DNA of 64,000 nt from Candidatus Hydrogenedentota bacterium (GCA_013359265.1 JABWCD010000005.1:73678-137677), one strand, 5' to 3'. Positions 39,274 to 48,695 are shown, numbered from the stretch's first letter. The notes: generated by a model not told the origin, from the sequence alone. A program made the numbers and translations.

Positions 39274-39314
39274 CGAAAAATGGTCGGGGCGACTGGATTC
39301 GAACCAGCGACCCC
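39274..39314 (-). repeat. Partial 3' fragment of tRNA-Pro (T-arm, acceptor 3' strand and CCA, plus 6 nt of flank): att-like direct repeat marking the distal end of the island
   Basis: A 41-nt block exactly identical to 48611-48651, followed by weaker similarity. No complementary 5' acceptor strand is present, so this is not a functional tRNA. Confidence 0.8.
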
Positions 39315-39485
39315 TGCCCAGGCTGCACGATGTGCGCAGTGCACCGCCATAGAACGTCCTTTCGTTGGCCCGCCTCAATCTTGATCCGCCAGCGCACACC
39401 CTGTTACATATCAGTCTAACGGGTGCATGGCGTGTCGGGCGCAGGCAATGACCGTCCCCCGTTGGGATTCGAGTGGGGAGAATTC

Positions 39486-42400
39486 ATGGCCGAGAAGCCC
39501 AATCCTAGAAGCGAGCCGCGCGGCAAAGACCTGTTCATTGTCGACAACAGCGACACGGACTGGAAGGTCAAGAGCTACCTCCAGGAATGGACAGAGGTCG
39601 CGCATCAGTTCGACATTGCCACGGGATATTTCGAGGTGGGCGCACTGCTTGCGCTGGACGGTCAGTGGCAGAAGCTCGACAAGGTCCGCATTCTCATGGG
39701 CGACGAGGTCAGCCTCCGCACCAAACGTGCTTTCACAAACGGACTCGCCAAGGTCGAAATGGCGCTCGACGCGAGCATCGAAAAGGAAAAAGAAACGAAC
39801 GACTTTCTCCACGGCGTACCGGGGATTGTCGAGGGCATTCGGTCGAACAAAATCGAGTGCCGCGTCTACACGAAAGACAAATTCCACGCCAAGGCCTTTA
39901 TCACCCACGGCAAGCTCGCCGTTGTCGGCTCGACCGCCTTGGTCGGCTCCAGCAACTTCACTTACCCGGGTCTGACGGACAATGTCGAGCTGAACGTCCA
40001 GATTCAGCGCGAGGTCAAGGACCTTCAAGAGTGGTACGAACGCCACTGGAACGAAGCGAAGGACGTTTCGGAAGATGTCCTCCGCGTCATCGAACGCCAC
40101 ACGCGCGAGTTCACGCCCTTCGAGGTATACGTCAAGGCGCTTCAGGAGTTCTTCCGAGGCCACGAACTGACGGCATCGGAATGGGAACTGACCAAATCGC
40201 TGATGTACCCCAAACTGGATCAATACCAGAAAGAGGGCTACCACGCGCTGCTCAAAATCGCCATGCAACACAAGGGCGCTTTTCTCTGCGACGGCGTCGG
40301 TTTGGGCAAGACGTTTATCGGCATGATGCTGATCGAACGCCTCACGATGTTCGACCGCAAACGTGTCGCGCTATTCGTCCCAAAGGCTGCTCGCAAGCCA
40401 GTCTGGGAAGCCGCGCTCAGAAAGTATCTGCCCAATCTCGGCGGGGACTTTACGAACCTTGTGATTTACAACCACACCGACTTGCAGCGGGGCGGCGAAT
40501 ATCAGTCGCGCTTGGCCCGACTGAAAGACATGGCTGACGTGGTGATAATCGACGAAGCGCATCACTTCCGCAATCCCGGCGTAAAGGGCGAAGGCACGAA
40601 GCGGCCCTCACGGTACTGGCACATGTTTGACCTGTGCGAAGGCAAGACGGTGTTCATGCTCACCGCGACGCCCATCAACAACAGTCTACTCGACTTTCAG
40701 CACATGATCGAGCTGTTCAGCCGCCGCGAGTCGGCGTATTTCCAGAACACAGTCGGAATCCATTCCCTCGCTGGCCATTTTCGCAAGCTGGAGAAGGCGC
40801 TGGAACGCGCCGTTGGCATCGGCGTGGAACAGATGGAACTGCCCATCGAAGTGAATCAGGCGGAAGCCGCCGAAGTCATTACCGGCGATCCCCTCCTGAC
40901 AAAGCTGGTCGTGCAGCGCAGCCGCGCCTACGTGCGTAAGAGCCAAGAACAACACGACGGGCGGACAGCCATTTTCCCCGAACGCCAGGCCCCGCAGGTC
41001 GCGGATTACTCGATCAAGAAAACATACGGGCGCTTGTTGAAAATGCTTGAGGACGCATTCAACAAGGAAAAGCCGCTATTCTCGCTCGCCATCTACTACC
41101 CATTGGCCTACTACAAAGGGCCGAACGACGCGATTGACACCAAGCTGGAAAACCGGCAAAAGCAGGTCGTCAGCCTGATCCGCACGCAGTTCCTAAAGCG
41201 ATTCGAAAGCTCGGCGCGCGCGTTCCAAATGTCTTGTCAGGCGCTGATGCTCAAGCTGCTTGCCTTCGCGACAAAGCACAGCACGTCGATCACCGAGAAA
41301 CACCGGCTGGAACGGTGGAAGGGACAACACGAGGACCTCATCGGATACGTCCGCGAGCATCAGCACGAATTCTGGGGCGACGCGGAGGAAGACGACGCGG
41401 ACGCGGACATCATCACCGATGAAATGATGGAAGACATCGACGAACTTCACGAAGACGAGTACAACATCGATGAAATCCTGTCCGAAACTTTCCTCGACCT
41501 CGACCAGGTCGCCGCATTCCTTCAGGAACTACAGAAGTTCAAGCCATCGCACGACGACAAGCTGAAGGCCCTCGTGAAACTGCTGAAATCAGACCCCGTG
41601 CTCAAAGAGCACAAGGTTATTATCTTCTCCGAATACATGGCGACGGCTCGCTATCTCAGGAAGCAACTGGAAGAACAGGGCTTTACCCGCGTCGACGAAG
41701 TGGACTCCGCCAGCAAGAAAGACCGGGGCGTGGTCATCACCCGCTTCGCGCCGTACTACAACGATTCGTCGTCGGGAAAGCTGGCGGAGGAGGGTCACGA
41801 TGAAACGGGCATCCTTATCGCCACGGACGTGCTCTCCGAAGGCCTGAACCTCCAGGACGCGACGCGGCTCATCAATTACGACCTCCACTGGAACCCTGTC
41901 CGCCTCATGCAGCGCATTGGCCGCGTGGACCGCCGCATGAACCCGGATGTCGAGGCCGCGATTCTCAAGGACCATCCGGAACAAGAGAAGATTCGCGGCA
42001 AGGTCGCCTACTGGAACTTCCTGCCCCCGGACGAACTGGACGAACTGCTCCGGCTGTATTCGCTCGTGTCGCACAAGACGCTGAAGATTTCGAAAACGCT
42101 CGGTATCGAAGGCAAAAAGCTGCTCCGGCCCGAAGACGACTACGAGGCCCTGAAAGACTTCAACCACGCCTACGAAGGCACGCCCAGCGGCGACGAGGCA
42201 ATGCACCTCGAATACCAGCGACTATTGAAGGAACACCCCGGTTTGGAGGAACGGCTAAACGCGTTGCCCAAGCGGGTATTCTCCGGGAAGGAACACCCTA
42301 AGCCGGGCACCAAGGCCGTCTTCTTCTGTTTCTCGCTGCCCGCGTTCGATACCAGCGTGAAACTCGAAGAGGGCGATCCGGAAACGAACGCCTGGACAGA

Positions 42401-42647
42401 CGACGCGGGCCTCACGCAGTGGTATCTGTACGATCTGGCGACCGAAAATATTCACACCGACGCTGCCGAAATCTTCACAGTGATCCAGAGCGAACCGGAC
42501 ACGCCACGACACCGATCCGTGACGGACGAGACGCTTTCCGAAATTCGCGCTAAGGTTGAAAGACACGTCAAGAACACATACTTCAAGCAAGTTCAGGCTC
42601 CGGTCGGAGTTCGGGCCACGCTCAAATGCTGGATGGAACTAAGCTAG
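39486..42647 (+). CDS. Fusion protein: N-terminal PLD-family nuclease domain plus SNF2-family (SF2) helicase
   Basis: HxK PLD motif (FHAKAFITHGK...GSSNFT). SNF2 Walker A (LCDGVGLGKTF), DEAH box (VIIDEAHHFRNP), helicase-C (ILIATDVLSEGLNLQDA...QRIGRVDR). GGGGAGA RBS before the ATG at 39486. Confidence 0.8.
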   Translation: MAEKPNPRSEPRGKDLFIVDNSDTDWKVKSYLQEWTEVAHQFDIATGYFEVGALLALDGQWQKLDKVRILMGDEVSLRTKRAFTNGLAKVEMALDASIEKEKETNDFLHGVPGIVEGIRSNKIECRVYTKDKFHAKAFITHGKLAVVGSTALVGSSNFTYPGLTDNVELNVQIQREVKDLQEWYERHWNEAKDVSEDVLRVIERHTREFTPFEVYVKALQEFFRGHELTASEWELTKSLMYPKLDQYQKEGYHALLKIAMQHKGAFLCDGVGLGKTFIGMMLIERLTMFDRKRVALFVPKAARKPVWEAALRKYLPNLGGDFTNLVIYNHTDLQRGGEYQSRLARLKDMADVVIIDEAHHFRNPGVKGEGTKRPSRYWHMFDLCEGKTVFMLTATPINNSLLDFQHMIELFSRRESAYFQNTVGIHSLAGHFRKLEKALERAVGIGVEQMELPIEVNQAEAAEVITGDPLLTKLVVQRSRAYVRKSQEQHDGRTAIFPERQAPQVADYSIKKTYGRLLKMLEDAFNKEKPLFSLAIYYPLAYYKGPNDAIDTKLENRQKQVVSLIRTQFLKRFESSARAFQMSCQALMLKLLAFATKHSTSITEKHRLERWKGQHEDLIGYVREHQHEFWGDAEEDDADADIITDEMMEDIDELHEDEYNIDEILSETFLDLDQVAAFLQELQKFKPSHDDKLKALVKLLKSDPVLKEHKVIIFSEYMATARYLRKQLEEQGFTRVDEVDSASKKDRGVVITRFAPYYNDSSSGKLAEEGHDETGILIATDVLSEGLNLQDATRLINYDLHWNPVRLMQRIGRVDRRMNPDVEAAILKDHPEQEKIRGKVAYWNFLPPDELDELLRLYSLVSHKTLKISKTLGIEGKKLLRPEDDYEALKDFNHAYEGTPSGDEAMHLEYQRLLKEHPGLEERLNALPKRVFSGKEHPKPGTKAVFFCFSLPAFDTSVKLEEGDPETNAWTDDAGLTQWYLYDLATENIHTDAAEIFTVIQSEPDTPRHRSVTDETLSEIRAKVERHVKNTYFKQVQAPVGVRATLKCWMELS

Positions 42648-42671
42648 CCGACGAGCAAGGGGATAGGGACC

Positions 42672-43163
42672 ATGCCGTATCGAATCACTGAGAAACTTCA
42701 GGGGGTGAAGGTTTCGGCGGGTACACTGGCCAACGCCGTGTCAACCATCCAAGGTGCAAAAGGTGGCGTTCCCGTATTCAGCTTTGCCAAGGGTGAGTTC
42801 GAACTTCGGCGACTCGATGTTGCAGTCACCATACCCGCCACCGGTGCATGGCCCGGCCCCGTCCAAGTTCGCGTGGCACAACTGCCACGTTTGAAAAAGT
42901 ACTTGGATTTGAAGTCCCTGGACGCGGAAATCGATATTTTGCCCACGCTAAGAGCGTTGAGGATTGGCGAGATTCAGGTTCCTTGCACGTGGCGCGCTAG
43001 GGCGTATGAAATCTTACGGGGCGCAACTGTAATTACATCGCCGGAACACCGACGCAAGTTCGAAGAGGTGGACAAAATAATTGGGAGCAAGTACGCCGCT
43101 CAAGCGATGAAAGATGCGGTCAACCCAAAAGAAGATGAAGAATGGCGCGAGACACTATTCTAA
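42672..43163 (+). CDS. Hypothetical 163-aa protein, second gene of the island cassette
   Basis: GGGGA RBS; 25 nt downstream of the helicase gene; its 3' end overlaps the methyltransferase start by 22 nt. Confidence 0.5.
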   Translation: MPYRITEKLQGVKVSAGTLANAVSTIQGAKGGVPVFSFAKGEFELRRLDVAVTIPATGAWPGPVQVRVAQLPRLKKYLDLKSLDAEIDILPTLRALRIGEIQVPCTWRARAYEILRGATVITSPEHRRKFEEVDKIIGSKYAAQAMKDAVNPKEDEEWRETLF

Positions 43164-46100
43164 GCATCGTTGATTTCCCTAGCCTTGTTACCTTCCTGGC
43201 CGACGAACTCGATTGGCCAATCGAGGACGACCAGTTTGACGACCTCGATGCGCTGGCATTCGACTACACGCCGGACGAACTCAACTTGCCGGACGAACTC
43301 CATGCCCGCGTGCGCAACGTCAAACAAATGCGCCCGCTCACGACCAACCAGCCGTGGGCGGTGTTCTACGTCGAGTTCGAGTCGAAGCGCCTGCCCCTTA
43401 CCGCGCTCCGCCGCATTCTGAATCGGTTCGTCGAGAAAAAGCGCACGTCCGCCGGTGACCGTGTCACGTGGAAAATGCAAGACCTCCTGTTCGTGAATGC
43501 CCACGGCGACGGCGAAGATCGGGGCATGACCTTTGCCCACTTCTCGAAGCCGGACGCGGGCTACACCGCCGTCATGCGCGAGTTCATGTGGACGCGCAAA
43601 GAAACGCACTTGGCCCATATTCACAATTATATCGAGTGCCTCCACTGGCCGGATGACGGTACGAGCCAGAAAGACTGGCGCGAGCAGTGGCGTTCGGCCT
43701 TTGTCGGCTCGAAGCGAAAAGCCATCCGGGACTCGAAAGAATTGGCCCAGGAAATGGCGCACTTCGCGCGGGACGTGCGCAAGCGCGTCGGTGAAGTGCT
43801 GGACATTACGCGCAAACGGCAGTTTGAGCCATTGCAGCAACTGTACAAGGCATTCAAGACGCTCTTAATCCATGACCTGTCGGAGGACGATTTCGCCGAC
43901 ACCTACGCGCAGACCCTTGCGTATGGACTGTTTGCGGCGCGCGCGGCCCATCCCAACGAATCATTTGACGTGGCCCACGCGCCGGAGCGCATTCCGCCTA
44001 CAAATCCTTTCCTACAGGGCCTATTCGCGCAGTGCTTGGGTCTGACAAAGGTTGGCGGTGGGAAGATCGACATTGAAGAAATCGGCGTGGGCCGATTGGT
44101 TGAACTCTTCGAGGGCCTGCGCCCCGAGGATACGACACGCATTCTCAACGAATTCGGGTCGCAGACCGGCGATCCAGTCATTCACTTCTACGAGGAATTC
44201 CTGACGGAATACGACAAGCGGAAGAAGGTTCAGCGCGGTGTGTTCTACACGCCCAAGCCGGTCGTGTCCTACATCGTGCGCAGCGTACACGAATTGCTTC
44301 AGACCGAGTTTGGGCTTGAGGACGGTCTTGCTTCGACCGATACGTGGGCAGATATGGCCGCACGATTTCCGAAATTAAAGATTCCGGATGAAGTAAACTC
44401 GAAATCCGCTTTCGTACAAATTCTCGATCCCGCTACCGGCACCGCCACCTTCCTCGTGGAGGTTATCGAAGTAATTCATCGCACACTGACCGAGCGGTGG
44501 AAGCGCGAGAAGGTTTCCGCGCAACAGCAGCAGGTCCTGTGGAATCAGTATGTCGTCAAGCACCTTCTTCCGCGACTCCACGGCTACGAACTCATGATGG
44601 CCCCCTACACCATCGCCCACATGAAAATTGGGCTGAAGTTGAGAGAACTGAATTTCACCGCACTCCAATCACTTGGTGCGAATGACCGGGTTCGAGTATA
44701 TCTCACAAATGCGCTAGAAGAACCTGACGATGCAAGCGGTCAAGCGCAAATCGAACAATGCACCCCCGCGCTCGCGCGAGAAGCCACTGAGGTTGGAAAG
44801 ATTAAGCGTGGCACGGTTTTTACAGTTGTAATTGGTAATCCGCCATACTCCGGGATATCGGCCAATCTGTCAACTGCAATGCGCCGCAGTGTCGACCCGT
44901 ACCGTTTTGTGGATGGCGATCCAATTAGGGAAAAAAGTGCGCTCCAATTCGAGAAGAATCTCAACGACGATTATGTGAAGTTTTTTCGTTTTGCCGAGAA
45001 GCAAATAGAGAAACGAGTTGGTCTTATCGGCCTCATCACAAACAATGGCTATCTGGAAAGCGCGACCCTGCGTGGCATGAGGAATCACTTGCTGCAATCG
45101 TTTGGTCGGCGTTGGTTCCTAGATCTGCATGGTGATGCTGACAAGCGAGAGCGTGATGAACTGGACCAGACAGACGAGAATGTCTTTGAGATAAAGCGCG
45201 GGGTTTGCATCGCACTCCTCGTTCGCCGTCCGAAGATCCATCTAGCCGACAACGAGTTGTTCAGACAGGACATACGAGGAAGTTCTGGGCACAAGTATCA
45301 TTGGCTAACCACTAATTCGATTTTGTCCACGCGGTTTTCTGCATTCGCAGCTAGAGAACCAAACTACTATTTCTTTGCGCGCAACGCCGAAACGGAGGCC
45401 GAATATAACCAAGCGATTCCTATGGTCGAACTTTATGGAATAAACTCGACCGGCTTTGAATCTGGACGTGACGAGATCCTTACCGACTTTACTGCAATGG
45501 AACTTCGATCCAAACTTGTGCATTTTGCGACGTCACCAAAGGACGAGATTGTCCAAAGGTACTCTGTTTCCGAAGCGTGGGGAAAGAAACTATTCGATGA
45601 AAGGGCGACCATCGTCGCGGAAAAGGATTTTGCGAGGCATATCACGCCTTTCTTGTTTGGCCCTTTCGACTTGCGATACTGCTTCTACCGAAAAGACCTC
45701 TTGAAGACAAACAGTCACAGCGCGGGGAAACATCTCCTTGCAGGACAAAATGTTGCCCTGATGGTAATGCGGCAAGTCTCCATTGATGGCCCATTTACGC
45801 ATATTGGCGTGTCCAAAGTCATTCCAAACAACCGGTGTTTCTATAGTACCAAAGGGAAAATCTCATATTTTCCGCACGAACTCTTAGCTGGTGATCGAGA
45901 CCTGCCGTATTCGAGAGATCGATTTGTAGGATCTAACTTCAGACCGCAGGCATTGGCGCGAATCAAACGTCTTCTTAAACCCCACCAATCTGAGACCGAA
46001 CTCTCTGATCGAGCAGTGTTCGACTATGCTTACGCGGTGTTTCACAGTCCCGGCTACAGGAGCCGCTACGCGGAGTTTTTGAAGACCGATTTCCCGCGCT

Positions 46101-47158
46101 TGCCGTTAACCGGGAACCTGGAACTGTTCGGCGCGCTGGCCCGGCTCGGCGGCGAACTCGTCGCTCTGCACCTGCTGGAATCGCCCAAGCTCGACAAACC
46201 AATTACCGAATTTATTGGTGGGCGGAATCCCGAGGTCGAAAAGGTCTCGTGGTCGAATAACACCGTGTGGGTGGACAAGGCACAGACCACCGGCTTCCAG
46301 GGCGTGCGCGAGGACGTGTGGAACTTCCATGTCGGCGGCTATCAGGTCTGTGAGAAATGGCTCAAAGACCGCAGAGGCCGCACGCTGTCGGACGACGACA
46401 TCGCGCACTACCACAAAATCGTCGTCGCGCTCACCGAGACCATCCGGATCATGAAGGAAATCGATGAGGTCATCGACCAACACGGCGGCTGGCCCGGCGC
46501 TTTCTTGACGGGCAATTCCGCGGCGACGGTCCCCCCGGAAGCATCCGAGACAGTAGATCTCACATCAGCAAATAACGAACCAGAGTCACCCTGCGCCGCC
46601 GCCGATGAACCTGATCTGTTTTCATCCGTCGAGTCAGTCGGCTCCGACGAACTGGAGGGCGCCGCCGAGGAGTTGCCGGAAGTGCAGGACGAGGACGATG
46701 CGCCAAGTTATCGTCCGATCAGCGAGGTGCCGCGCGAGGAAGTGCTGTGCGCGGTGCGTAAGATACTCACCGCCGAATCGCCCTTGGACCGGGACGACCT
46801 GCTGAAACGCCTAGCCGAAGAGTTCGGTTATCAGCGGCTCGGCCCGAAGGCGCGCGACTTGCTCGAAGACGATCTGAAGACGGCAGTGCGCCGTGGCATC
46901 GCCAAGCGTAACAGCAACGAATACTCGCTGATCGCGCGCGGCATCAACGGCTACAACCGCAACTGGCTCAAAGACTGTTTCGTCAGCGCAACGGGCCGCA
47001 CGTGGATTTCCCGCGAGGACGCCATCCGCCAGTTTGCGCGGCACCTCGGATTCGCCCGCACCGGCAGCGCTATCGAGGACATGGCCCGCTCCCTCATTAA
47101 AGGCCTCCTCCGCGAGGGGCGGCTCGAATCCGACGGCCCGAATATTCGACGGGTGTAG
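43142..47158 (+). CDS. Giant (1338 aa) gamma-class N6-adenine DNA methyltransferase, type IIG/ISP- or BREX-PglX-like, with acidic linker and extra C-terminal domain
   Basis: Motif order FYTP (X), then ILDPATGTATFL (I), then VIGNPPYSG (IV). Long central/TRD-like region, an acidic linker ELEGAAEELPEVQDEDD, and a ~150-aa C-terminal domain. Confidence 0.75.
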   Translation: MARDTILSIVDFPSLVTFLADELDWPIEDDQFDDLDALAFDYTPDELNLPDELHARVRNVKQMRPLTTNQPWAVFYVEFESKRLPLTALRRILNRFVEKKRTSAGDRVTWKMQDLLFVNAHGDGEDRGMTFAHFSKPDAGYTAVMREFMWTRKETHLAHIHNYIECLHWPDDGTSQKDWREQWRSAFVGSKRKAIRDSKELAQEMAHFARDVRKRVGEVLDITRKRQFEPLQQLYKAFKTLLIHDLSEDDFADTYAQTLAYGLFAARAAHPNESFDVAHAPERIPPTNPFLQGLFAQCLGLTKVGGGKIDIEEIGVGRLVELFEGLRPEDTTRILNEFGSQTGDPVIHFYEEFLTEYDKRKKVQRGVFYTPKPVVSYIVRSVHELLQTEFGLEDGLASTDTWADMAARFPKLKIPDEVNSKSAFVQILDPATGTATFLVEVIEVIHRTLTERWKREKVSAQQQQVLWNQYVVKHLLPRLHGYELMMAPYTIAHMKIGLKLRELNFTALQSLGANDRVRVYLTNALEEPDDASGQAQIEQCTPALAREATEVGKIKRGTVFTVVIGNPPYSGISANLSTAMRRSVDPYRFVDGDPIREKSALQFEKNLNDDYVKFFRFAEKQIEKRVGLIGLITNNGYLESATLRGMRNHLLQSFGRRWFLDLHGDADKRERDELDQTDENVFEIKRGVCIALLVRRPKIHLADNELFRQDIRGSSGHKYHWLTTNSILSTRFSAFAAREPNYYFFARNAETEAEYNQAIPMVELYGINSTGFESGRDEILTDFTAMELRSKLVHFATSPKDEIVQRYSVSEAWGKKLFDERATIVAEKDFARHITPFLFGPFDLRYCFYRKDLLKTNSHSAGKHLLAGQNVALMVMRQVSIDGPFTHIGVSKVIPNNRCFYSTKGKISYFPHELLAGDRDLPYSRDRFVGSNFRPQALARIKRLLKPHQSETELSDRAVFDYAYAVFHSPGYRSRYAEFLKTDFPRLPLTGNLELFGALARLGGELVALHLLESPKLDKPITEFIGGRNPEVEKVSWSNNTVWVDKAQTTGFQGVREDVWNFHVGGYQVCEKWLKDRRGRTLSDDDIAHYHKIVVALTETIRIMKEIDEVIDQHGGWPGAFLTGNSAATVPPEASETVDLTSANNEPESPCAAADEPDLFSSVESVGSDELEGAAEELPEVQDEDDAPSYRPISEVPREEVLCAVRKILTAESPLDRDDLLKRLAEEFGYQRLGPKARDLLEDDLKTAVRRGIAKRNSNEYSLIARGINGYNRNWLKDCFVSATGRTWISREDAIRQFARHLGFARTGSAIEDMARSLIKGLLREGRLESDGPNIRRV

Positions 47159-47207
47159 AACATTGACGAGCAATGATCAGCACCAATCCAACTACGAGGT
47201 TTAACGA

Positions 47208-48317
47208 ATGCCATACAGGCCAAAGGAAGAATTTGTCCAAATGGCTAAGCAGGTGGTGGTAACGGGAAGGCCGCTCACTATTTCCGTGCGACAGTTGTTG
47301 GAGTTCTTTTGGCAGGAAAGGCGCGGCAAATACGTTACTCGGTACATTCGGAGCAAACTAACGAGTCTGGGGGTCGAGACGGATCCTCCATTTGAAGATG
47401 AACATATTGACGGTATAATCAAACTCTTTCCGCGGGAAAAGCGGGGCCCGGGCCGACCACCAAAAGCTGGTAAGAAAACGCCCGGTGCCGTTGCTGTGGT
47501 ACCACCTGCCCTTGTCGTAAACGATACGGAGTCGAGCCCCGTTATCGAGGAAAATATCCCGGTCGAAGATTCGGTTGAAGATGAGCGCCGCTCGTACTTG
47601 CCCATTTCGCTATTGAGCGCAGCAAACCGAAAGCCTGTGAGTGTGCGTCCAGGCGATGAGATTGAAACGGTCGTGTTCCAATTAATGTCCGAAGGACTCG
47701 CTCATTTGCCCGTGTTACGGGATTCTAGAAGTCCTGAGGGAATCATCACTTGGCAATCATTGGGCAAGGCAAACGCGGGTGGCGATCCTCCGAAGACCGC
47801 AAGAGAGTGTTTGGATGTCGACGTCCGTGTTGTCGGCTTGGATACGCCGCTGTTCGATGCTGTTAGGGACATCATCAAAAGCGGCGTAGTATTGGTGCGG
47901 AACAAGAGCAATGAGATATGCGGCATGCTCACGGCGCAGGACATCGCGGAGCAGTTCGTTGCGCTCTCTGAACCTTTTTTGTTTCTCGAACAGATCGAGA
48001 ACCATCTTCGTAATTTGTTGATTCGTGCCAAGCTCTCGCAACAAGAACTGAATTCTTTTATTGATCCGGCCGACAAAAGAAGAACTCAAGGAAAAATAAC
48101 CGTAGATGACCTGACCTTTGGCGAGTATTTGCGGGCGATGTCGAAGGAAGAGGTTTGGTCGCGACTAGCACTTAGAATTAATCGGAAGCTGTTCATCGAT
48201 CGGATGGATAAAGTGCGCGAGATCCGAAATAGCGTAATGCATTTTCATCCGGATGGAATTTCAGATGGCGATCGTGAACTGCTCGCCAAAACGCGTGAAA
48301 TGCTACAAGGTCTGTAA
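47208..48317 (+). CDS. CBS-pair / HEPN-domain protein with AT-hook (putative nucleotide-sensing RNase effector)
   Basis: AT-hook KRGPGRPPKAGKK; two CBS-like segments (ETVVFQLMSEGLAHLPVL; LFDAVRDIIKSGVVLVRN); C-terminal HEPN Rx4H motif REIRNSVMHFH. Confidence 0.6.
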   Translation: MPYRPKEEFVQMAKQVVVTGRPLTISVRQLLEFFWQERRGKYVTRYIRSKLTSLGVETDPPFEDEHIDGIIKLFPREKRGPGRPPKAGKKTPGAVAVVPPALVVNDTESSPVIEENIPVEDSVEDERRSYLPISLLSAANRKPVSVRPGDEIETVVFQLMSEGLAHLPVLRDSRSPEGIITWQSLGKANAGGDPPKTARECLDVDVRVVGLDTPLFDAVRDIIKSGVVLVRNKSNEICGMLTAQDIAEQFVALSEPFLFLEQIENHLRNLLIRAKLSQQELNSFIDPADKRRTQGKITVDDLTFGEYLRAMSKEEVWSRLALRINRKLFIDRMDKVREIRNSVMHFHPDGISDGDRELLAKTREMLQGL

Positions 48318-48529
48318 CAGAAATGCCATAGGATATAGGATTCTTGCGAATCTCACGGCATGGAGCCCAATTTAGTCCTACGGCAAGATTCATCGTATCA
48401 CAGAAAATGCGAATTGATAACACGAATGCGCCGTGATGCACACGAATGGGCGCCAGGCCAGCGGGTTTGGGACGCGCCGTAAACGGCTAACCGACAAGAG
48501 CCTGTAAATGTTGGGAGAGGGCTGCGTAT

Positions 48530-48616
48530 GCCATGCAAGTCGAAAGCGGAATTTGTGGCACTTGCGAAGCAGCAAGTTCGAAAAACCGGACGTCGTGCAT
48601 GGGCAAGAGTGAAAAA
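48530..48616 (+). pseudogene. Remnant N-terminus of a paralog of the CBS/HEPN gene, running into the tRNA-Pro 3' end
   Basis: MPCKSKAEFVALAKQQVRKTGR aligns with MPYRPKEEFVQMAKQVVVTGR of the 47208 gene (12/22 identical). The reading frame continues into tRNA sequence. Confidence 0.5.
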
Positions 48617-48695
48617 TGGTCGGGGCGACTGGATTCGAACCAGCGACCCCTTGCCCCCCAGGCAAGTGCGCTAAACCGGGCTGCGCTACGCCCCG
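48617..48695 (-). tRNA. tRNA-Pro (anticodon GGG), CCA encoded
   Basis: Manual fold: acceptor CGGGGCG/CGCCCCG, D-arm GCGC..GCGC, anticodon stem CTTGC/GCAAG with loop CTGGGGG (anticodon GGG, G37), T-arm GCTGG-TTCGAAT-CCAGT, discriminator A, CCA. Confidence 0.8.

Follow-up and report, generated by a model that had tools for sequence, protein, structure and literature searches.

A tRNA-Pro-associated island with a putative split, ATP-dependent restriction-modification pair beside a DS-11 gene

The interval 39275–48651 of the window (the whole 64-kb stretch of DNA that was analysed) is probably a small island integrated at a tRNA-Pro gene, whose integrase was lost or never carried and which holds two independent anti-phage systems. 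We put the probability of this reading at about 70%. On the best reading of its four genes (g1 to g4, table 1), this decayed tRNA island combines a split ATP-dependent restriction-modification system, similar to Type ISP enzymes and to MANTIS, with the defence system DS-11. The original prediction had taken the four genes for a single cassette, and this is not supported: the conserved unit is g1 plus g3, g2 is a rare occupant of the slot between them, and g4 is DS-11. The proposal that the cargo serves in anti-phage defence is itself supported.

The borders of the ~9.3-kb island at tRNA-Pro are marked by an exact 41-nt direct repeat, made up of the final 35 nt of the tRNA (CCA included) and 6 nt of adjacent sequence. 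By chance, ~4e-16 such exact pairs are expected in 64 kb. This bears out the footprint of site-specific integration at a tRNA 3' end that had been described for the locus, with two corrections: the repeat is 41 nt in total rather than 41 nt of tRNA plus 6, and its left copy lies at 39275–39315, not at 39274–39314. Between the copies are four co-directional ORFs, as tightly spaced as had been claimed (24 nt, a 22-nt overlap and 49 nt). Housekeeping genes lie outside the repeats, with HAD hydrolase and enoyl-CoA hydratase at one end and PP2C plus holA at the other. The GC content of the island is 55.4%, compared with 60.6% overall and 58–65% in 500-nt windows for the neighbouring chromosome, and falls to 46% at 45300–45360. 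The local drop reported earlier is thus real, but the figure of ~68% given for the neighbourhood was too high. Third-position GC (GC3) forms a mosaic within the island (0.76 in g1, 0.56 in g2 and 0.535 in g4). As the original prediction stated, the island is integrase-less: no integrase, transposase, DrmA/B, BrxC or PglZ was found in the island or in the Pfam-scanned flanks (34.6–38.9 kb on the left, 49.4–51.8 kb on the right), and the integrase of a related island (L022, see below), used as a tblastn query, had no match anywhere in the whole 64-kb window. It is the repeat that suggests the island was mobile.

Table 1. Coordinates of the island's features in the window.
Feature	Position	Strand	Description
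Left 41-nt repeat copy, att-like	39275–39315		exact match to 48611–48651; 6 nt of tRNA-downstream sequence + duplicated 35-nt tRNA-Pro 3' end
g1	39486–42647	+	1053 aa; HKD/PLD nuclease fused to Snf2-type SF2 helicase; predicted motor-nuclease (R) subunit
g2	42672–43163	+	163 aa, in the g1|g3 slot; predicted single sliding-clamp-like domain (residues ~8–110), then low-confidence helical tail
g3	43142–47158	+	gamma N6A methyltransferase; NPPY at residue 566
g3 N-terminal domain, aa 1–343	43142–44170	+	restricted to partner proteins of g1-family helicases; predicted to serve as adaptor to g1
g3 methyltransferase + Type ISP-type target-recognition domain (aa 764–1106)	44171–46471	+	motif I DPATGT429, motif IV NPPY566
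g3 C-terminal extension	46472–47158	+	acidic linker + DUF3320-type domain; Pfam DUF3320 at aa 1195–1237
g4	47208–48317	+	CBS pair + HEPN protein; DS-11 member, independent of g1–g3
Right 41-nt repeat copy	48611–48651		overlaps 3' end of intact tRNA-Pro
tRNA-Pro(GGG)	48617–48695	minus	ARAGORN; Rfam tRNA 60.4 bits; integration target, 3' end toward island

The earlier domain calls for g1 (a PLD nuclease and an SNF2 helicase) agree with its Pfam domains: PLDc_2, ResIII, SNF2-rel_dom and Helicase_C. Its motifs are intact (H134xK136, GSSN154, GLGKT272, DEAHH356 and QRIGR809), and the HKD, Walker A and DEAH motifs, together with the NPPY motif of g3, are invariant across the family, which for g1 numbers more than 6000 homologues. 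An alternative GTG start at 39423 would give a product of 1074 aa. The ATG at 39486 is served by a GGGGAG ribosome-binding site, and this start agrees with the 1053-aa gene on Logan contigs and with the NCBI-listed protein P0002.

The call of g3 as a gamma N6A methyltransferase stands, although the recognition domain (Type_ISP_C) and the DUF3320 tail had gone unnoticed. Pfam matches Type_ISP_C (PF18135, 221 bits), Eco57I and N6_Mtase, and residues 424–1012 are homologous to three proteins of solved structure, namely DrdV (7lo5, 8.6e-28), LlaBIII (4xqk, 5.5e-23) and LlaGI (5ffj, 2.9e-20). PglX-type matches reach only ~20 bits and DrmMI 24.5 bits. The PADLOC Type IIG model REase_MTase_IIG (PDLC03610) scores 621 bits, so standard tools would label g3 a Type IIG restriction-modification enzyme, and family members are listed as enzymes complete in themselves. 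The earlier statement that the set matches no canonical system holds for the helicase-nuclease/methyltransferase part and is too strong for g3. The N-terminal domain of g3 matches no known fold or restriction-endonuclease fold, and its D/E-x-K residues are not conserved; an E-x-K does occur in its alpha/beta subdomain, both in the window's g3 and in 50% or more of relatives. Judged by its sequence, g3 appears to be without a recognisable nuclease of its own, and this subdomain may hide a cryptic one. The same N-terminal domain accompanies g1 even when the methyltransferase is of the Eco57I/TaqI_C or DUF7008 type. The C-terminal tail was found by tblastn in ~10 of 80 related loci (e.g. L008, L047, L049, L055, L069, L078 and L080).

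These loci come from a scan of a 185,579-species genome set, which returned at least 576 stretches encoding g1 relatives, 80 of them kept as species-representative loci. Every one of the 80 has a g1-family gene, and 75 have one of the g3 family. The two genes are separate ORFs in the window and in 75 of the 80 relatives, and ~56 of ~74 pairs are directly adjacent. On viral contigs, every locus that extends past g1 has the pair (8/8). There is no third core gene: other families of at least 150 aa recur in at most 15 of the 80 loci, antisense shadow ORFs aside, and neither the DUF499 ATPase nor DrmA/B nor PglZ is recurrent among them. Of the island's other two genes, g4 has a homologue near the pair in 3 of the 80 loci and g2 in none. 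Together, g1 and g3 make up a widespread and apparently unnamed two-gene restriction-modification-like pair.

The small protein g2, previously listed as unknown, does remain without a match in Pfam (even at E<=1), PADLOC and NCBIfam. Its predicted fold, modelled from a 4-sequence alignment, is that of one DNA sliding-clamp domain, and so recalls DnaN, PCNA and 9-1-1. There are clear differences from such clamps. The g2 model has one domain, against three per chain in DnaN and two in PCNA, whose rings have six domains; the sequences are not similar (hhalign of profiles against E. coli DnaN gives a probability of 0.5%); and the g2 gene sits in a restriction-like operon, not with replication genes.

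The last gene, g4, scores 293.3 bits on the NCBIfam equivalog NF053863 (DS11_antiphage), for which the cut-off is 260, over profile positions 1–305 of 305. The CBS/HEPN domain call of the original prediction is confirmed by two CBS stretches (Pfam) and a HEPN Rx4H motif (RNSVMH, residues 340–345), features shared with DS-11. The only differences seen are 27 N-terminal residues outside the profile and ~34 inserted residues. DS-11 protects as a single gene, as shown for its prototype (PMC13092281). By analogy, g4 would act alone, with the CBS pair binding an adenine nucleotide and thereby controlling the HEPN RNase.

How does the g1–g3 pair compare with known systems? Type ISP enzymes (LlaGI, LlaBIII) likewise have a gamma N6A methyltransferase and a Type_ISP_C recognition domain, homologous in sequence to g3, to which an SF2 motor and a nuclease are added, and both lack an AAA+ loader. 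Type ISP enzymes translocate along DNA by ATP hydrolysis and cleave when enzymes from head-to-head sites collide. They are single polypeptides (nuclease, SF2 helicase, coupler, methyltransferase and recognition domain), whereas g1 and g3 are separate; their nuclease is an Mrr-type PD-(D/E)XK enzyme, whereas that of g1 is PLDc_2/HKD with a Snf2-type motor; and g3 carries a different N-terminal domain. The MANTIS/Gao_RL/Type-2 BREX-related system (MtsA-D) has an effector built like g1: MtsD also joins an N-terminal HKD/PLD nuclease to an SF2 helicase. In both, the effector is paired with a self-marking N6A methyltransferase, and the operon contains a small enigmatic protein. Yet MANTIS needs a DUF499 AAA+ ATPase (MtsA), which is not found in the window; the same ATPase belongs to Hma (as HmaC) and to BR types 1 and 3. 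MtsB is a small DUF3780/DUF3870 protein, and DUF3780 is described as a four-strand sheet with five helices, unlike the predicted clamp domain of g2. MtsC is an alpha-class enzyme (DPPY) with a central recognition domain, whereas g3 is gamma-class (NPPY), with motif I first and a C-terminal Type ISP recognition domain. In sequence, g1 is distant from the MtsD type, with 136 bits on NF042964 (cut-off 1100), a PLD-helicase anti-phage model that may not represent MtsD; it scores 80 bits on HmaA and 127 bits on DrmD (cut-off 610).

Other systems share single parts. Type IIL/IIG enzymes (DrdV, MmeI family) include the best solved-structure sequence match of g3, but these enzymes bring an N-terminal PD-(D/E)XK nuclease of their own and work without a helicase, whereas the N-terminal part of g3 lacks conserved catalytic residues and g3 is nearly always paired with g1. 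SauUSI (Type IV, ATP-dependent) resembles g1 in its N-terminal PLD nuclease and SF2 motor, and its dimer builds one PLD site. It acts alone on modified DNA through its own methylated-cytosine recognition domain, and Pfam and PDB sequence searches found no such domain in g1. The pairing of g1 with a methyltransferase implies that it would instead target unmodified DNA. Class 1 DISARM (DrmD, DrmMI, DrmA, DrmB, DrmC) also combines a Snf2 helicase, an N6A methyltransferase and a PLD nuclease, but DrmA and DrmB (DUF1998) are absent here, and the sole DrmA match is a generic helicase C-terminal match inside g1. BREX differs in PglZ and BrxC, which the island lacks.

Several other readings of the locus have to be weighed. 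The four genes might make up a single new defence system: the methyltransferase would mark self, the helicase-nuclease would sense or cut DNA, and the CBS-HEPN protein would serve as RNase effector. Their shared direction and tight spacing would fit, as would the g4 homologues lying within 10 kb of the pair in L023, L027 and L040. Against this, a g4 homologue is missing from 77 of the 80 loci and is on the opposite strand in L023, g4 is above the equivalog cut-off of a single-gene system, and its GC3 (0.535 vs 0.76 in g1) suggests separate acquisition. We regard the one-system reading as very improbable. With a g4 homologue near the pair in so few loci, the HEPN RNase is not the effector of the restriction-like module that it had been proposed to be. 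It is also unlikely, in our view, that g3 is complete in itself as a Type IIG/IIL enzyme whose N-terminal nuclease has diverged, and that g1 is a stand-alone, SauUSI-like protein that merely tends to lie next to it. The PADLOC score, the Type IIL enzyme DrdV as closest solved relative and a beta-beta-beta-alpha N-terminal subdomain with E-x-K in the window sequence favour such a g3, and SauUSI, with the PLD and SF2 architecture of g1, does work alone.

A further alternative concerns g2, which could be unrelated cargo or a spurious ORF with no part in restriction. Elsewhere, the content of the g1|g3 slot varies (PIN/VapBC, DUF433+DUF5615, MNT+HepT, NYN, RhuM-Fic and YhcG genes), and unrelated genes, including toxin-antitoxin genes, fill it in ~16 loci; g2 is missing from all 80 representative loci, its family comprises only 4 clusters, and its GC3 (0.56) is below that of g1. 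The protein is basic and fast-evolving. Against the cargo reading, PAxGxW and PCxW motifs are conserved between family members only 26–30% identical, which argues for a real, constrained protein, as does the confident fold prediction. Moreover, three family members share the slot (g2, P0124 and P0125), and the fourth (P0123) adjoins a DUF499 gene of a BREX-related system. One ancestral insertion may explain the slot association, because the g1 of L092 is 72% identical to that of the window. On balance we doubt that g2 is mere cargo, while granting that reading a real share of the probability. Finally, the repeat might be a local partial duplication of the tRNA, with the intervening genes ancestral to the lineage. 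No integrase is present, and no empty site or excised form was found, either in a junction scan of JGI metagenomes or on Logan contigs, which end inside the repeat. We nevertheless give a local duplication hardly any credence: the repeat is direct, corresponds precisely to the 3' end of the tRNA with its flank, and brackets only defence cargo amid housekeeping genes; island composition departs from the flanks; L022 holds the same module in an integrase-bearing tRNA island; and the closest g1 relative (81% identical) lies in another genomic context.

Returning to the preferred reading, g1 and g3 would be the two subunits of an ATP-dependent system resembling restriction-modification, and g2 an accessory to it. 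As the modification and recognition subunit, g3 would read a short asymmetric site and methylate adenine to mark self, probably on one strand as in its homologues LlaGI, LlaBIII and DrdV. At an unmodified site, g3 may recruit or activate g1 through its family-specific N-terminal domain, and the Snf2 motor of g1 would then work on double-stranded DNA. Because each g1 chain has a single HKD motif, a PLD active site would need two chains, as it does in BfiI, SauUSI and MtsD, and cleavage would thus be expected when two complexes meet. Homology is the source for the recognition site, the methylation pattern, the g1–g3 contact and the cleavage requirement alike. Most likely, though this is speculative, g2 modulates DNA engagement by the complex.

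A variant of the g1–g3 module, with an Eco57I/TaqI_C-type methyltransferase, lies inside a 21-kb tRNA-Ser island (L022). With its att repeat of 59 nt, its tyrosine integrase and its DUF3987 primase, this island illustrates how the module travels.

The island at tRNA-Pro(GGG) holds a known defence system, DS-11 (g4, a CBS and HEPN protein), and a widespread, uncharacterised two-gene ATP-dependent restriction–modification variant. The latter consists of a PLD/HKD–Snf2 helicase-nuclease (g1) and a gamma-class N6A methyltransferase with a recognition domain (g3), joined here by a rare accessory of predicted clamp fold (g2, 163 aa). The original prediction treated all four genes as one novel system. 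It is right only in part: g4 belongs to a known system, and the g1–g3 pair is uncharacterised.

The four ORFs and the repeated tRNA end are real features of the sequence, the left repeat copy lying one base from where it was first placed. A repeat search of the window reported this as its single outstanding direct repeat (chance expectation about 4e-16 pairs per 64 kb). Read from the sequence, it is made of the final 35 nt of tRNA-Pro, the encoded CCA included, and 6 nt downstream; the first description had given the tRNA share as 41 nt, with 6 more. The geometry, with the tRNA 3' end facing the interval, is that of classical tRNA-gene integration. Between the repeats, gaps of 24 nt (g1 to g2) and 49 nt (g3 to g4) lie on either side of a 22-nt overlap of g2 with g3. 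The g1 product agrees with the gene call on Logan contigs and with the NCBI-record listing (P0002); an alternative upstream GTG start lies at 39423.

Features of the tRNA-Pro island, in window coordinates
Feature	Position	Strand or direction	Details
Direct repeat, left copy	39275-39315		41 nt, 100% identical to right copy; repeat search of window
g1 ORF	39486-42647	co-directional with g2-g4	ATG start, GGGGAG ribosome-binding site, 1053 aa
g2 ORF	42672-43163	co-directional with g1, g3, g4	
g3 ORF	43142-47158	co-directional with g1, g2, g4	
g4 ORF	47208-48317	co-directional with g1-g3	
Direct repeat, right copy	48611-48651		41 nt, 100% identical to left copy; repeat search of window
tRNA-Pro(GGG)	48617-48695	minus	ARAGORN and Rfam; 3' end directed into island

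The composition of the island differs from its surroundings, with a GC content of 55.4% against 60.6% in the remainder of the window. In 500-nt windows the lowest values are 47–49% and the flanks reach 58–65%, so the 68% initially given for the neighbouring chromosome was overstated. The flanks carry housekeeping genes (GHMP kinase, S9 peptidase, GNAT, enoyl-CoA hydratase and HAD hydrolase to the left; PP2C phosphatase and holA to the right). As originally noted, the island has no integrase: none was found within it or in the tested flanks (34.6–38.9 kb and 49.4–51.8 kb), and tblastn with the integrase of a related island found no remnant across the whole window. Promoter and terminator scans gave counts no higher than the shuffled background, and an Rfam scan returned nothing besides the tRNA. 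In the search for an empty site, exact matching with the HAD protein of the flank recovered only Logan contigs ending inside the repeat. These end 30 nt into it, as expected of a k=31 assembler at a two-copy repeat. A scan of JGI metagenomes found no island junctions, empty or circular. The island has the look of a decayed or pared-down form with both att copies in place and no integrase.

In a Phycisphaerae genome, g1 and a variant g3 sit on an element that seems to be a complete mobile carrier of the module. This 21-kb tRNA-Ser island (L022:1175-22634) contains an att repeat of 59 nt, a DUF3987 primase and, adjoining the tRNA, a tyrosine integrase; it carries the module as cargo in an Eco57I/TaqI_C methyltransferase variant. 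Its further cargo includes Nmad2 and an AAA_15 ATPase. Several other loci have a tRNA less than 2 kb upstream of g1. Within the cargo studied here, GC3 is host-like at about 0.75 in g1 (0.76) and at both ends of g3 (N-terminal domain and C-terminal tail). It is lower in the methyltransferase (0.57) and recognition domain (0.62) of g3, in g2 (0.56) and in g4 (0.535). This mosaic suggests recombination within the cargo, in which the methyltransferase and recognition region of g3 was exchanged.

The g1 family is large and strongly conserved, with more than 6000 homologues in the protein database. Scanning a single genome for each species gave at least 576 g1 relatives, from which 80 loci were kept with 10-kb flanks; they span many phyla, and their g1 homologues are 56–72% identical to that of the window. 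In about 74 of these loci, the sequence for the g3 N-terminal domain (aa 1–343) directly follows the g1 homologue (tblastn, protein parts), and about 56 pairs are 15–40 nt apart or overlapping. When every ORF of at least 150 aa in the 80 loci was clustered, only two real recurrent families emerged, g1 (80/80 loci) and g3 (75/80); the next real families reach at most 15 loci, and a cluster present in 69 consists of antisense shadow ORFs. A third core gene, be it a DUF499 ATPase, DrmA/B, PglZ or any other, is therefore absent. In IMG/VR, eight of nine loci reach beyond g1 and all eight contain the pair. Plasmids searched by tblastn with g1 yielded only homologues of 25–30% identity. Some partners, in about 13 loci, combine the N-terminal domain of g3 with another N6A methyltransferase and recognition domain, of the Eco57I/MmeI type with TaqI_C or DUF7008; the nearest g1 relative (81% identical) has such a partner. 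Other genes lie downstream of the pair. Two families of ~1250-aa proteins recur there in eight and four loci (e.g. L074:20751-23135 and L078:17485-21234). Downstream of the pair that contains the nearest g1 relative, a gene for a protein of 538 aa (L089:16264-17880, L090:13238-14854), in which dCMP_cyt_deam_1 and MafB19-deaminase domains are recognised, may be another defence or toxin gene.

Pfam assigns PLDc_2, ResIII/SNF2 and Helicase_C to g1, and its HxK, GSSN, Walker A, DEAH and motif VI sequences are all intact and invariant in 20 relatives (64–81% identical). Its best PADLOC model is C3a139, a type III CRISPR-associated ‘HKD+Snf2’ cluster. In g3, motif I (DPATGT429) precedes NPPY566, which is the gamma-class order; Pfam finds a DUF3320 at its C-terminus and a Type_ISP_C recognition domain (221 bits). 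Residues 424–1012 align with three enzymes of known structure: DrdV (Type IIL, 8.6e-28), LlaBIII (5.5e-23) and LlaGI (2.9e-20). The PADLOC Type IIG REase-MTase model scores 621 bits, and PADLOC would label g3 ‘Type IIG’.

Several known systems share parts of this design. Type ISP and Type IIL enzymes are closest for the methyltransferase and recognition domain of g3, but g1 and g3 are not a single polypeptide and have no Mrr nuclease, which rejects Type ISP. MtsD of MANTIS/Gao_RL and SauUSI come closest to the PLD–SF2 effector of g1, and DISARM class 1 has Snf2, methyltransferase and PLD ingredients in common with the pair. Membership of MANTIS, DISARM or BREX is rejected because the core genes are missing: the locus has no DUF499 or DUF3780 protein as in MANTIS and BREX-related systems (its methyltransferase is also gamma, not alpha), no DrmA/B, and no PglZ or BrxC. 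The Snf2-nuclease and methyltransferase operons described in the searchable literature (Hma, BR types 1–3 and MANTIS) all contain DUF499. No named two-gene HKD–Snf2 and methyltransferase system appears in that literature, which leaves REBASE and subscription journals outside its reach.

The junction between g1 and g3 is a variable slot, occupied by one or two additional genes in about 16 loci. Pfam identifies PIN toxins, DUF433 with DUF5615, MNT with HepT, NYN, RhuM-Fic and YhcG/DUF1016; further occupants are AbiEii-like or AAA-like, judged by eye only. The small upstream ORFs paired with slot PIN toxins have no Pfam match. Embedded toxin–antitoxin or Abi-type genes make the slot a hotspot in L007, L010, L020, L023, L029, L035, L039, L040 and L050, the pairs in L040 and L050 being PIN-like by eye only. 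This position resembles that of embedded genes in Type I restriction–modification operons.

In the window, the slot is filled by g2, which has no match in Pfam, PADLOC or NCBIfam; a word-index search returned only g2 itself. When 1.8 billion cluster representatives were scanned in full with HMMER, four weak matches emerged, one of them an assembly artefact. The latter (P0122, 1293 aa) consists of seven near-identical tandem units of ~190 aa, all of which show weak similarity to residues 21–69 of g2. It looks like an artefact of a tandem or circular template, not a real protein, and was discarded as a homologue. The three real homologues (P0123–P0125) have the PAxGxW and PCxW motifs of g2 at 26–30% identity. 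P0124 lies between a g1 homologue (72% identical) and a g3 homologue (41–46% identical), and P0125 follows the C-terminus of a g1 homologue by 40 nt; these two same-slot cases may descend from a single insertion. P0123, carried by an element that has an integrase, is 584 nt from a gene for DUF499, an ATPase that is a hallmark of BREX-related, Hma and MANTIS systems. From these contexts, g2 is real, fast-evolving (29% identity where g1 keeps 72%) and associated specifically with HKD–Snf2/methyltransferase systems. The g1 homologue beside P0124 (L092:4859-7999) is split in the gene calls into ORFs of 836 and 174 aa, and tblastn reads through at 71% identity; the split is thus due to a frameshift, a sequencing error or a pseudogene. 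P0123 (L096:3-4370) adjoins genes for DUF499 and DUF7680 where its integrative element ends; that element also carries AlpA, Prim-Pol and AAA_25; the contig ends within a putative BREX-related system.

A g2-family profile gave no signal against E. coli DnaN. Where the g2 stop overlaps the g3 start (43142-43163), g2 ends in ...WRETLF, superficially like a clamp-binding xLF peptide; this ending is not conserved in the three homologues. A motif scan found no clamp-binding motif of the QLxLF type in g1–g4.

The fourth gene scores 293 bits against the NCBIfam equivalog ‘DS11_antiphage’ (cut-off 260) and has a CBS pair and an Rx4H motif. DS-11 is a one-protein CBS and HEPN system from the DefensePredictor study, and its CBS and HEPN mutants lose defence (PMC13092281). 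Of the four genes, only the g1–g3 pair is common in the 80 representative loci: no g2 family member occurs in them, and g4 homologues lie near the pair in three, once on the opposite strand. The GC3 of g4 also differs from that of g1 (0.535 against 0.76). It is a system separate from g1–g3 and would work independently as a CBS-gated HEPN RNase.

The computation establishes the domain content, the intact catalytic motifs, the conserved g1–g3 pairing, the slot variability, the predicted fold and contexts of g2 and the DS-11 membership of g4; the mechanism of the pair is a proposal that goes beyond these. By homology with Type ISP and Type IIL enzymes, g3 would read a short asymmetric site and methylate one strand. 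The architecture suggests that its N-terminal domain engages g1 at unmodified sites, that the g1 Snf2 motor travels on DNA, and that a PLD active site forms from two paired g1 chains, as in BfiI, SauUSI and MtsD. With one HKD motif per chain, two chains would have to pair, so that cleavage would follow the meeting of two complexes. More speculatively, g2 may modulate DNA loading.

We give a probability of roughly one in five to the combined reading, in which g2 is a genuine, fast-evolving, single-domain clamp-like accessory of HKD–Snf2/methyltransferase defence, and g1 and g3 form a distinct and widespread two-component ATP-dependent class. Under it, g2 could oligomerize into a ring encircling DNA, tethering or licensing the motor-nuclease or the methyltransferase, or could be a decoy, baiting phage proteins that target the host beta-clamp; the pair would do the job of MANTIS without an AAA+ loader. 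If either the ring or the decoy were true, g2 would be the first clamp-fold component of a restriction–modification-like system.

The DS-11 assignment of g4 brings a recently validated system to Hydrogenedentes. The predicted clamp-like g2 is the first slot example without precedent and the most surprising element of the locus, and the variable slot may be a source of further accessory or defence genes. The pair joins the methyltransferase and recognition of Type ISP/IIL enzymes to the PLD–Snf2 effector of MANTIS and SauUSI in two subunits without an AAA+ loader; if true, this makes it a natural minimal comparator for the mechanisms of MANTIS, BREX-related and Type ISP systems. If g1 and g3 act together, they would be a common system that now goes mislabelled or unlabelled, with the at least 576 relatives from the species scan and the more than 6000 in the protein database, and a large family of proteins called ‘Type IIG’ by automated annotation would have its label corrected.
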